Assembly (NCBI GenBank): GCA_963924565.1
Contig: OZ004609.1
Coordinates: 9,238,001 to 9,302,000 of the forward strand
Reading direction: 5' to 3'
DNA from: Ascidiella aspersa
Taxonomy: Eukaryota
Length of the DNA stretch: 64,000 bases
Positions within the stretch are counted from its first letter, which is position 1, and every line of letters begins with the position of its first letter. Below are positions 3,301-9,300 of this stretch, in pieces. A model generated the notes under the pieces. That model did not search any database. It was not told the origin of the DNA and saw only the letters and a program-made list of their open reading frames with translations. The position numbers and the translations under genes are program-made.

Positions 3301-6300
3301 CAACACATCTCTTTTTTACCTTGTGGTCTAATTTTACAAGGATTTTTTTGCCGAGCCGCTTTTAAGAGCGGTTTTTAACAAGTATCTCATTTAGAAACAT
3401 TTTTTTTTGCATCGCGGCCAACTTTTACTTTCTGCATACATTTTCCAACGTTTTTCATAATTCGAAATCCAAATAATATATTACCAATCACCATGGTGCA
3501 AATAATAAAAATAACAGTTACACATTAAAACAAATTCGATTTACTACAGCACTTAAAGAGAACATAAATTAAGCTGCTCATAAACTAAATTCAAAGACTC
3601 AAAGGCTTTGTGGCAACCCTGAAACTGCAGCAGGTCATGGGCCTCCATTAAACTATACTTTTGGTACACTTTTACTACGTAAATACAATTCTTATGGCGA
3701 ACTTTCCTTATTTATCAACGTTGTCCAATCAAGAGAAATAGTTTCAGCCAAAACCGTCGCGCGGCCGCGTAAACTCAGACACGATACTAATTGCCATTTC
3801 TGCATAATCTATAAATGCCAATTAATCTACACGCGAATGTCTTTCATGATTGTGCAATGTGCATGTACAAAGGGGCGCTCGAGTACAGCTAAATTTTGAA
3901 TATTTATTGTAAGGCGCCACGTTACAGCAGTGGGGGTCGCAAGGGGCTGTCTGGGGGGTCACCGTGTAGTATTTGATAAAAAAGAACTTTATAAGAAATA
4001 ATTACTAACATTTGGCAGTATATAAGGAGCAAAAGCAACCCCAGTCCCAAAAATGAATCAAGCGTAGCATCATTTAAAGTTTTAAACGATGTCTAATAAA
4101 AATGCATGAACGCACAAACCGTAACTTTGCTTTGTTGTGCATACTTAAATCTGGTCACTTTAGTCGAATTTCGATACAATCCGTTTAAATTTTACCCCTT
4201 TTCGAATTTTGCCATTTTTTAAATGTGTTTTTTTTACTCTGGTTTATGTATCCATGCACTATATTGGGGGGGTCGCGCAAATGATGCAGGATGCGCCCTT
4301 AAACGTTTAGCACCTTTCTGTGTAATCCAGATGTTGTCGAACTGTGCGTCACGACGCCCCGGGCCTCGGGTGCAACTTTCCAAGCGAATCGCAGTAGAAA
4401 TTTGTTTGTAGAAAATCGTTTTAAATCAAGGTTGAAGCGTTAAAATTGGACGCCATAATTTAGCTTGCTTGGCCGGTAATGAATGTTGTGCAGAAAGTGT
4501 TTTCAACATTTAGAGCTCTGGCACGTTTGGCAAATACCTTAAGCTGGTTAATGAGAATCAACTCAAATGTCCCTGTATATTCTAGCTTAAAATTTTCAGC
4601 GCAGTTTAGCCAAGCTGTACTAATTTTGTTTTAACAATTTCCTCAGCTAAATGATTGCCACCGCTGAAATGTAAAAGGAAGGAAGACACTAAGCGTTACT
4701 CTGGAATACAAACTTAAAGCAGATTGTTGAAGTAAAGGTCTAAACTGCTGAACATATGACCAAGGACTAGGCAGTGCAATAAAAGTGTAAAAACTTATAC
4801 AGTGATATTAGTTCAGTTCAATTGGGGACAAAAACATCTAAGTTACATAAATTTGATACATTAGGCACAGTAAATCGTGTTTTATTTGGTGTTTTTATGT
4901 TAAACACGCCTAATTAAAGAAGTGTATTATGACATAGATTAGTTACGGTATTAACGTAACCGAAACAGTGCCATGTTTTGACAGAAGTGCACCATAGTGC
5001 TTTGTAAAGTATTATATTATATTTATATAACTGCTTTTAACAGAGATTAAAAGACAGGTAAGTATGCTGATTTCAAAAAGGCTGTTTATATGTTTTACTT
5101 ACAAAAATAAGCACTGCAGAATAAATCTGTTAACGCATTTTAGAAGAATTTTGTTAGATCCCCTATTTTTAACTCATAAATCTCCCAACCCAATCAATTA
5201 AAGTTGTGTACAAATTTATCTACTCAAACATTAAAAGACACAAAACGTTGCTTAACAATTTTTTCTTAGATTTATTTTCCATATGTCTGTAACCCAGTTT
5301 TAATAATTCGTCTGATCACCTTGATTCATTAGCAGAACTTTCATAGGACATCAGCTTTAGTTATGTCAAACAACTCAAACTTGATATGGCAATGGACCAA
5401 CCAGGAAAATGTCACAAGTTCTGATAACGATTCCGACAGCGAAATAACGGAACTATATCTCAGAAATAATCGTCTTTGCGACCTGGCATTTTTGCAGTAC
5501 GCGTCGGCCGAATCAAACTACTTAAAGGCATTAGAAAGTCAAAATCTGTCTGACGACACCTTGTCAAGTAACAAAAACAAACTATGCAGTAAGAAATATA
5601 CGGAAACTATTCTTCAGAGTGATTTTCAAACAGTCACGGCAAAGACAACAGTTGAAATCGTCAAAACACAGGACAAGAAATCTAGCCATAATGAAAGCGT
5701 AGAAAGTGGACAGCATAGTTCGGTAAACAAGGAAATACTACAGAAGACAGAAATTTTAGGTTGCCAATCCCATTTCAATTTAAACAAATCTACTCCAGCG
5801 AGCAATATGCCAAGTCAATTCACTTGTGAAATTGGCGTTGCTTCAACAAATGGTAGTGAGTCAAAAGAAAATGAAAAGGAAAAAGATCCATGTGAGCATA
5901 TTGTGGAAGATAACACTATACTGTCTCCAAAGGCAGGCAATGAGTCTTCCAGTGCTGGATTTTCTGCGCCTTGTGGTGCCTGCGCATTGTGCGGCAATCA
6001 CGGGCACCATAAAACAATGGTCGAGGCTATTACCGCACTAAAAACACCAATGGGAAACATCAAACTGCATCAGCAGCTAACCTGCAGCAGCTATGGAATA
6101 TACGTGGTCACTTGCATAGTTTGCAAACAGCAGTACGTTGGAAAAACGGCCTTACGATTTTCAACAAAGTGGAATTTGCATCGCTGGTCCTGGAGAGCAC
6201 AGCGTGGTCACAGTAAAAAAACTCTTTTGAAGCATTACTTACGAAGTCATGGTGACATTCTGAAACGTAAGAGTGACATTGCCGACTGCTACAGTTTGGC

Positions 6301-9300
6301 GTTCGTGGAGCAACCGCCGAAAGATGAGCTTAGTTTGTTTCGCGACAAATGGATAAAGAGGATACGAGCAAAAAAGTGTAACTAAACGTGAAATTTGATG
6401 GTATATGTTTGGTATACATATTTTATGCGGAATCTTCAAAGGACCAACTAGAAGATTGGCTTTTTATTTCGGCAAAGCAATAAATTGAATACAAGGAAAA
6501 ACGTGTAATTAAATGTAAAGTTTTATGTTTTGTCTTTTATCTAAACATTTTAAGTCGTTTCAGAGTAACTGACCCTGACCAACGTTGCTTAAGGATTGCT
6601 CGAAAAAAAAAAGCTATCAGTTTATTAGCTATATGAAGAGTTTTAAAATTTGTTTTAAAAATGAGTAACTGTCTTAGCTGCGCTACTACTAAATGTGGTT
6701 ACTTTAATTAGCCAATTTTTTTACCAAACATGATTTCCGTAAATTAATCAACACTCACCTGACAAACGTTTTTTGACTTACTAAAGGTTTGCAACAGATG
6801 GTCTATTCAAGTGGTTCGCAAAAATGGTTGTTTATTTTATGGTTTAGAGACCAAAAAACAAAGATGCATTCAAAGTCATAAAAGTTTTGCCTGCAATTGG
6901 ATGCCTGTGCTCTTAGCTCTGTTTGGAACTTTTATTTAAAAATTATAATTAAACCTTCTGGTGTTTATTACTTTAAGAACCTGTTGTATTTTACATCACT
7001 CAACTAGTACTTCAACTCATGGAATTATATATATTACTTTTTTTTCTTATCTGATAATAGACTTAAGAAATGCCAACTCCAAAACTTCCAACGTAAAAAG
7101 GTGGGACTTAAAATCGAATTAAAAACTGATGCCTGTGGTTTTGATTTTCCAACTTGGGTTAGGATTAACAGTCATGCAGCATTAAGGAATAAAGTCAAAA
7201 TTCCTACCCTTCCTTTTTCCATTAGGTTGGTAATCATCACAATCACCACAATGTTGTTCTCCCAAATCATTTTCCAAAAGTCATTGAAGGTTGACGGCAT
7301 GGGACCCTAAAAAAATGCATTAAACTTTATATGATAATATCAAAAAACTTTGGGAGTCTGAAGTGCATTTCAATTCAACTAGGAGCAAATTGTTTAAACA
7401 GGTTAAATTGCAAGATAAACAATGATTAATTGCAGTTTTGTTTGGGTTGTTCAACAGTACACTTACATCAAATTTTATTAAGATCAGATATGAACAAATA
7501 TTTACCAGTAGAATAAAAATAGTTAAGCTGATTTTATTATATAAGCTTTTATAGACAATTTACATAATTTAAAATGAACAAGTTAAAATACTTATTCATT
7601 AAAACCAGGGGTTTCTGAACTTTTTAGGCAGCACACAAAACCCAAAATAATTATTTAAACATTTCACAGTAACAAAAAGTCATACTTTTACATTTAATCT
7701 AGAATAATCTGCAATAATCTACAGAAAGCGTTTAAAGATTAATGTGAACTGAGCCAAGACAGTGAAACAGACGCTAAAATGGGATATTTCCAGTGAATAT
7801 GTCGCCCCTGTTACCAAAACCACAAAACACTTGGGGTGGGTGGACGGCGCAAAATTTAAAGAGTTTGAATGCTTCAGTTGTTAAATTAACACTAAAAAAA
7901 ATAAAAAACACAATGCCTTATTTAATATGTGGATTAACTGTGGAATTTGGCAATTTAAAAGTTAAAAAATATAGTGCGTTAGAAGCTAAAGGAAAGCAAC
8001 CCTTCATGGCATGCAATGTATGCTAAAAAAATAATAAACGCAATGCCCTATTAAATCTGTGGAATTGTAAAATAATGTGACTTAAAAGTTGAAAAATATA
8101 GTGCTTTAGAGGCTTAGAACAAAGCAACCTTACCTGGCATGCGATGTATGCTTTTGGCTTCTCATAGCTTGAAACATAGTTTGCGTTTATGTAATCAGAG
8201 CCACGGTGAATGTTGTGCTTGGTTTTGTTTTGGTGCAGACGAACCCTGGTATGGTCATCTATTTAAAAATAAAATAAACGTAACCAAAAACATACTTAAA
8301 AAAAACTATGCAGCGTAGATAGGACGTTAAAAATTGTTGAAGTGGTTTATAAATGTTGATGGCAAAAACGTTTGGCAAAAATGTACAAAAAACTTTAAGG
8401 TTAACTCCTTTTTAGACAGGTACACTGACACAACAATGTACAGTCAAAACGTTTTTGTCCATTTTAACAAAGTTACTGCAAAACTTGGGGTACCCTATGC
8501 AATGATCTGTAATGTAGCTTGATAAAATAAATTGCAAAGCCAAAAAATTGCTTTGATTTACTTCTTTGTGACATTAACTTACGATGACACAGGTTCATAT
8601 CGAATAGTCTTAATCAAGATAATGTCAATTTACTTGACATTTTTGGCTTTACAATTCATTATCAAGCTAAATTGCAAAACTATTGATGCAAATTTGCAAG
8701 TTGGTTCTTCAAAAATTTAGTCATAACTTACAGGCAACTATATTGGTGTATCGATTCTTGTCTTTGTTTTCTGACTGTGAGGAGGCTTCACATGAAGGCC
8801 GTGACTGGGTGCAGTTTTGGATTTCCTGTTTAAAAACATCGTTTAAACAAGCAAACAGATATTGCCCAACTTGCATGGTTTAATTAAAATGGTCATGTAC
8901 TATTGTCTATAAAGTGATACTAAATGCAGCAGCATAAATGCTTGCAATATTAAAAATGATTTCATTGCAAAATGAGACTACTATTTCAGACAATCAGACA
9001 TGGTTTGTGAGCAAATCAACATTCTATGCCTGGGATGGTTAAGTTTTCAGATAATAACTTGATGAACTAGACTTGTTACTGCATATAAATTATGATTGGT
9101 TAATTTTGAAATAGGACCTGGACAGTGTTAATTAGAATGTCTAACTAACACTGTCCAGGTCCTATTTCAAAATTAACCAATTTCCTTATTTTGCCGAATT
9201 GCTCCCTCAGAATTAATTAATAAGACATTGCTGTTTGACCAGAAATAGGTAATCGGTATTGAAATAAAGTGCAGAGTATCATACAACCCTGATTGTAAAT

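Follow-up and report, generated by a model that had tools for sequence, protein, structure and literature searches.

What becomes of a mobile-element nuclease domain that appears to have lost the residues with which it cuts DNA? The question is raised by P0001, an open reading frame (ORF) in a stretch of 64,000 nucleotides from Ascidiella aspersa (assembly GCA_963924565.1, contig OZ004609.1, positions 9,238,001 to 9,302,000 of the forward strand; hereafter the window). The ORF comprises 340 codons, is intronless and runs from 5363 to 6385 on the + strand, antisense within an intron of a tyrosine-phosphatase gene. It fuses a unique N-terminus to a GIY-YIG endonuclease domain of the Neptune type, a clade of Penelope-like elements (PLEs). 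Three parts can be distinguished: predicted N-terminal helices at residues 24–107 (5432–5683, +), a predicted disordered linker rich in S, T, N, E and K at residues 108–197 (5684–5953, +), and the Neptune-type domain, predicted to be inactive, at residues 198–340 (143 residues; 5954–6382, +). The ORF is probably a functional gene. We lean towards the reading that it is a domesticated host gene, whose product is a zinc-stabilised pseudo-nuclease that binds nucleic acid and does not cut it.

A sequence-only reading of this DNA had described the domain as catalytically disabled, with Lys and Arg in the places of the catalytic Arg and the metal-binding Glu, and as keeping both Tyr motifs, the Cys/His ligands and the Trp. 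Codon reading and column alignments agree on all of these points. K269 (AAG; 6167–6169, +) stands at the catalytic Arg position, equivalent to R27 of I-TevI, and R327 (CGC; 6341–6343, +) at the metal-binding Glu position, equivalent to I-TevI E75 and three changes away from any Glu codon. H273 and W330, read from the codons, are present as described earlier. Among the best 150 of 316 representative database matches, the column of K269 holds Arg in 127 of the 143 relatives covering it and Lys in five, while that of R327 holds Glu in 78 of 91 and Arg in three. The losses stand out equally in the alignment to PLE endonucleases of the same genome that had been proposed earlier. In copies from 130 fetched loci, Arg was found in 136 of 139 and Lys in none at the first position, and Glu in 129 of 136 and Arg in none at the second. 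When the 112 copies that cover both columns are considered, 105 carry Arg and Glu, seven have lost one of them and none has lost both, so that no PLE copy sharing the Lys/Arg pair was found.

A profile of 60 relatives aligned the two columns to R27 and E75 of I-TevI (1ln0 and 1mk0; E 0.003–0.004), structure 1mk0 being labelled E75A in the fold search. D328 and E322, two residues named earlier as possible occupants of the catalytic site, lie in variable columns among the same best 150 matches (D in 27 of 97, E in 3 of 99), and an Asp adjacent to the Glu is found in intact copies as well; judged by conservation, neither residue takes over from the Glu. Further losses in the domain are Q261K, D284S, A287T, D324S and a deletion of about three residues before SKKT. 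The C-terminal tail of the domain is entirely lost. The conserved Asn column is filled by C339 in an ungapped alignment and by N340 if a one-residue insertion is allowed; Slx1 is also without the conserved GIY-YIG Asn (PMC1564403). In the mechanism set out in PMC3045582, the helix Glu serves as anchor for a single metal, and the helix Arg holds water and phosphate in position. Taken with the column alignment, this supports the earlier claim of a disabled domain well, and the domain is very likely catalytically inactive. A compensated frameshift around R327 was set aside by eye, with W330 in register and a Cys allele at codon 326, from run X1, in frame.

The Neptune identity of the domain is clear from its relatives and from its predicted zinc ligands. 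A search of the 309-Mb assembly with residues 198–340, in which 150 of 336 candidates were scored, matched at least 151 genomic places, the best other copies being 44–49% identical. The matching copies are the C-terminal endonucleases of PLEs that encode a reverse transcriptase (RT), and the domain is 38–47% identical to eight Neptune family representatives of its own genome. Its nearest named relatives are PLE ORFs of Phallusia mammillata, and in quick trees it nests, without starred support, among ordinary Neptune-type endonucleases. All eight predicted Cys/His zinc ligands are retained. The CxxCxxC linker finger (5972–5992, +) keeps C204, C207 and C210, and C241 (6083) is the likely fourth ligand. 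The hairpin GIY...CxxC...YVG (6095–6142, +) holds GIY at residues 245–247 (from 6095), C251 and C254, and YVG at 258–260, with both Tyr and the Gly kept; the Gln that follows is the one replaced by K261. The two His residues of the CCHH motif, H291 and H296, are kept as well (6233–6250, +). According to PMC8557442, the linker finger (CX2-5CxxC) and the CCHH motif distinguish Neptune-type endonucleases from those of Penelope and Poseidon.

The kept ligands and a confident predicted model (predicted local distance difference test, pLDDT, 92.5) also back the earlier view that the structure of the domain is preserved. However, the model was built from an alignment that includes active relatives, and it is therefore not independent proof of folding. 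In fold searches with this model, I-TevI, T4 EndoII and UvrC occupied the top rows, and the I-TevI catalytic domain was best (Foldseek E 1.3e-3; VIA Z 7.7, root-mean-square deviation 2.5, 84 residues aligned). The Pfam match to PF01541 was weak (15.4 bits against a cutoff of 22.6). Matches to Pfam CTLH_Armc9 (24.3 bits, cutoff 27) and to Kaiso (E 0.06–0.13) overlap the GIY-YIG fold and were dismissed as chance.

Around this domain we found little else that belongs to a PLE. The N-terminal 197 amino acids match only their own locus in the genome, and the DNA from 4800 to 7000 matches only itself. When nine PLE ORFs and 34 long ORFs of the same genome were compared with the locus by tblastn, the endonuclease was the one part matched; in the searches with PLE ORFs, neither an RT nor a thumb nor the N-terminal region of a PLE was detected at the ORF, and residues 1–197 matched no ORF of either set. 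An Rfam scan of 3000–7500 for the pseudo-long terminal repeat (pLTR)/hammerhead ribozyme gave no match, and neither family element bodies nor a hammerhead core were found near the ORF, where old ends may have decayed. The model places helices at residues 24–59 and 64–107 (block pLDDT 52–85), and pLDDT falls below 50 over 113–190. These helices had no relative in the database, longer-protein and Atlas searches, the first of which covered the best 150 of 316 representatives, beyond which a weak relative of the N-terminus could lie. A homodimer prediction for residues 20–110 scored 0.01, which is uninformative either way.

No orthologue of the full protein was found among 620 candidates at E ≤0.001, and an exact protein look-up returned nothing. 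None of 95 candidates for the N-terminal 100 amino acids among longer proteins was confirmed, nor was any of 76 pattern matches in a metagenome scan, and the Atlas search for the ORF gave no usable match. The top match, P0003 (E 2e-66), was rejected as an orthologue, as it has an ordinary domain with Arg and Glu, which entered the score two times owing to an internal duplication. The ratio of replacement to silent divergence (dN/dS) calculated against the family representatives was discarded as uninformative, because silent sites are saturated, and local DNA alignments to the families were uninformative as well (about 60% identity in blocks of 42–78).

We therefore turn to the frame itself and to its alleles. 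The stretch that encodes residues 1–197 (5363–5953) was open in none of 20000 shuffles. Of 45 conserved columns in the domain, 37 are kept, five are one base off, two are two bases off and one, the Glu, is three bases off. Uniform neutral decay of these columns gave P ≤0.0045 over the six distances tried and P 0.013 when the two columns beside the deletion were left out; for the 32 strictest columns, with the triple change counted, P was 0.0016 or less. Simple neutral decay fits these columns poorly, a signal of past selection on the domain. The ORF is free of stops despite an end branch of 0.8–1.3 and no sister family in the trees, and some of this branch length may date from an active lineage that has since died out. 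Own-genome copies that are at most 85% identical to their nearest family have internal stops in 10 of 12 cases, while some dead copies at a dN of 0.06–0.11 are still stop-free. The net charge of the domain is +14, compared with +4 to +12 in the eight family representatives.

Alleles were read from three runs covering the ORF (X1, X2 and X3), which are probably DNA because their depth is even across introns. The variant listing held 40 of 53 rows, 38 of them in the ORF. Per-contig counts placed the other 13 in 5306–5468 (about six) and 5630–5968 (seven), and therefore the domain past residue 202 is essentially fully listed and codons 1–35 are not. The 38 listed ORF variants are 15 silent and 23 replacement changes with no stops, and their per-site ratio of replacement to silent polymorphism (pN/pS) is 0.39–0.53 (P 0.005–0.044). 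No indel was found in the ORF, whereas the flank contigs had 16 or more such events for 147 substitutions (Fisher P 0.009 with the runs pooled, 0.027 in X2 and 0.12 in X1; the counts are not independent). These data support purifying selection on the entire ORF, with constraint that is evident in no part but the unique N-terminal one: codons 36–88, a stretch chosen post hoc, carry five silent and no replacement changes (P ~0.001), whereas the listed rows for residues 71–197 comprise five silent and 12 replacement changes. Outside the conserved core, variation in the domain is unrestrained, and none of the domain's 10 variant codons falls at a kept conserved column (P 0.05–0.10). No variant of K269 was among the rows listed for X1, X2 and X3, and none of R327 among those listed for X1 and X2. 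Codon 326 (6339), just before the lost Glu, has Phe, Cys and Ser alleles in three different samples.

How could such a protein work? In the reading that we favour, the 3′ fragment of an old Neptune element would have landed in the reading frame of a coding stretch on the host side, after which selection would have retained the zinc scaffold and the core while the active site drifted. Replacement of the metal-binding Glu by Arg would remove the Mg site and add positive charge to the cleft that faces the phosphate; with its net charge of +14, the domain would not cut DNA but could hold on to the backbone. The part of the N-terminal helices would be to attract a partner or to add affinity of their own. 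Isolated GIY-YIG domains bind DNA weakly, at about 10 µM for I-BmoI fragments (PMC3664794), and a partner recruited by the helices would for that reason probably be needed.

This weak binding is one of several points that weigh against a domesticated binder. In about 6% of a single RNA run we found eight reads, of which six lie within the ORF and are antisense, as they are oriented like the phosphatase exons; the other two are sense and lie upstream of the ATG. No orthologue came out of the protein and metagenome searches. About six variant rows beyond those listed fall in 5306–5468, where a replacement or a stop is possible. The variants of the domain itself, four silent and 11 replacement, give a pN/pS of 0.73–0.96, which is indistinguishable from neutral. 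In the neutral-decay analysis, a two-criterion test confined to the 32 strictest columns gave P 0.07; the significance hinges on the triple change, and a single multi-base event could produce the same picture. Finally, the GC content at third codon positions (GC3) of the domain is 0.48, within the 0.35–0.53 of the PLE families and below the 0.61 and 0.74 of two host exons.

The main rival accepts a functional gene and places its function in the N-terminal helices, the domain being a once constrained, now relaxed passenger that is starting to decay. Silent-only change in codons 36–88 next to a nearly neutral ratio in the domain, with three alleles at F326 and the variant Q257L beside the YVG motif, is in line with this. 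However, the domain has no listed stop or indel, its variants show a weak tendency to avoid the kept conserved columns, and the same keeping of ligands recurs in three other altered Neptune domains described below (L133, L149 and P0074). A passenger domain thus seems rather unlikely to us. Another reading takes the whole ORF for the inactive relic of a Neptune family that has died out, with a frame left open by luck and running back into non-coding DNA. It would be consistent with the blank orthologue searches and the few RNA reads, and with the stop-free dead copies mentioned above. Such luck would have to extend over 197 additional open codons and over alleles that are silent-biased and free of indels, and the multi-hit changes in the domain are restricted to few sites; we hold this explanation to be highly improbable.

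Two further readings give the domain another role. The protein could restrict Neptune elements, as a decoy on target DNA or as a poison of the ribonucleoprotein. The genome does have Neptune families with near-identical members (8–16 copies each among 88 near-full domains), and the high replacement variation at the surface would suit an arms race. On the other hand, the protein is without RT, thumb and PLE N-terminal regions and is no closer than 38–47% to the family representatives, and the 15 variants of the domain cannot separate positive selection from relaxed constraint. As homing-type GIY-YIG domains act as monomers (PMC3664794), there is no known interface to poison. A dominant-negative action, which the sequence-only reading had put forward beside transcriptional regulation, finds little support here: the regions needed to enter an element's ribonucleoprotein are missing, and the alleles indicate weak constraint on the domain surface. 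Restriction as a whole appears improbable. Weak nicking could in principle survive, with Lys269 serving for the Arg and a nearby acid or R327 for the metal site. Neither Tyr has been lost, nor have the Gly and H273, and in Hpy188I a Lys can stand for the YIG Tyr; yet in the predicted Glu helix (320–334) no acid would share the face of the Glu, positions 323/324 and 330/331 reading L, S, W and I, and the domain has also lost its conserved Asp at 324 along with the C-terminal tail. Retained cutting is the least credible of these alternatives and would surprise us.

A non-cutting, nucleic-acid-binding role for Neptune domains can also be considered in the light of other altered copies. P0074, an unrelated database protein of 605 amino acids, contains two complete and one starting Neptune-type domain in tandem within Q/S/P/N-rich sequence and is transcription-factor-like in composition. 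Its domains keep the Cys/His ligands but have neither of the two Tyr nor the Arg or the Glu, and a search for relatives of this protein found none among 7881 candidates. A genome search with P0074 led to L133, and one with L133 led to L149; both lie outside the tally of 112 copies. The L133 domain (positions 1119–1613 of that locus; C4, ~31956320–31956810, − strand) is single-copy, open and strongly diverged. It has lost the YIG Tyr, the His, the Glu and the Trp and kept the Cys/His ligands, and it follows a sequence that resembles a splice acceptor; an in-phase exon of coiled-coil repeats lies upstream (L133:2532–2206). The L149 domain (positions 2009–2446 of that locus; C3:5540508–5540945, − strand) is likewise single-copy and open, is GC3-rich and also follows a splice-acceptor-like site. 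It reads FVE for YVG and has Tyr for His but has lost none of the ligands and retains Arg, Glu and Asn. Upstream of it lies a frame of 163 codons, which had no Pfam match.

From their sequence context, the L133 and L149 domains look like terminal exons, and their GC3 is host-like (0.59 and 0.67). Together with the ORF they are without the loop before the His helix and without the C-terminal tail. A single clade for the three degenerate own-genome domains was not rejected (approximately unbiased test, p-AU 0.336; 24 rows, quick trees). We tentatively raise the possibility, which we consider somewhat doubtful, that the GIY-YIG domain of Neptune elements serves as a reusable, zinc-bound module for nucleic-acid binding, taken up into animal host proteins once or several times after catalysis was lost. 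The ORF, L133, L149 and P0074 would then be the founding members of a hitherto unrecognised class of regulators, pseudo-nucleases of PLE origin. If true, three candidates in one genome with different active-site changes and kept zinc ligands would point to a non-catalytic use of the domain. Next to L133, at L136:265–2331 (+), lies an intronless frame of 689 codons, which we presume to resemble a gamma-tubulin complex component.

Domesticated non-catalytic binders are known from other folds and element classes. CENP-B, a DNA binder derived from a pogo transposase, and the RNase II pseudonucleases of fungi (PMC8097288) are like the ORF in the proposed single-copy, selected and enzyme-dead mode of binding, but differ from it in fold and in element class. 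With the Neptune-clade PLE endonucleases (Craig et al. 2021, PMC8557442), the ORF shares the CxxCxxC finger, the CCHH motif in the core and the predicted fold. In contrast to them, it is single-copy, has no RT, thumb, pLTR or Rfam match nearby, is fused to a unique helical N-terminus, and has lost Arg, Glu and tail, with a doubtful Asn. The natural changes of the ORF fall at the same two positions as those of the I-TevI R27 and E75 mutant structures (1ln0, 1mk0), whereas I-TevI differs in having no zinc ligands within its catalytic domain and in possessing a separate DNA-binding domain.

In the literature searched, which lay for the most part outside subscription journals and was partly accessible, no domesticated PLE endonuclease protein was found. 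Two papers touch on the subject: Arkhipova et al. 2013 (PMC3846280) report no strong evidence in the rotifer Adineta that Penelope ORFs have been exapted, and Frith 2022 (PMC9004415) lists ancient Penelope/Neptune fossils in human that are not described as intact proteins in the part consulted. Domestication is well known for transposases and for proteins of long terminal repeat elements, and a PLE endonuclease would extend it. Furthermore, the ORF, L133 and L149 are natural variants with which the role of the PLE zinc fingers, called unknown by Craig et al. (PMC8557442), can be probed.

The gene that hosts the ORF is a tyrosine-phosphatase gene traced from 293 to 12203 of the window on the − strand. 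The intron in question (3208–7207, −; about 4 kb) is supported by its splice context and by the flanking exons, which match the consecutive positions 49–81 and 82–129 of Pfam PF00102. One phosphatase domain was traced, and the gene is probably receptor-type, since it has a Sushi exon (11898–12203) and a hydrophobic stretch (~11171–11473). For the ORF itself, splice motifs suggest a candidate upstream micro-exon of 14 nucleotides (5044–5057, +) with a canonical acceptor and donor, and further candidate acceptors, also from sequence motifs, that end at 5269 and 5346; the sense read pair just upstream of the ATG appears unspliced across 5269. An AATAAA at 6479–6484 (+) is a possible polyadenylation signal, a motif that is common by chance in AT-rich DNA.

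The PLE remnants that the sequence-only reading had called abundant in the window are so genome-wide, with the 151 matches described above; the window itself holds one clear stub at ~13490–14290 and a few weak traces. This inverted-end Neptune stub is related to the L053 family, has hammerhead cores at 13585 (−) and 14115 (+), and contains a short N-terminal coding remnant at 13829–13918. A loose pattern scan also pointed to putative hammerhead-core-like motifs at 33005 and 35354. Elsewhere in the window, 18149–32047 is an exact tandem duplication of 6950 bases with 99.99% identity, which is either very recent or an assembly artefact.

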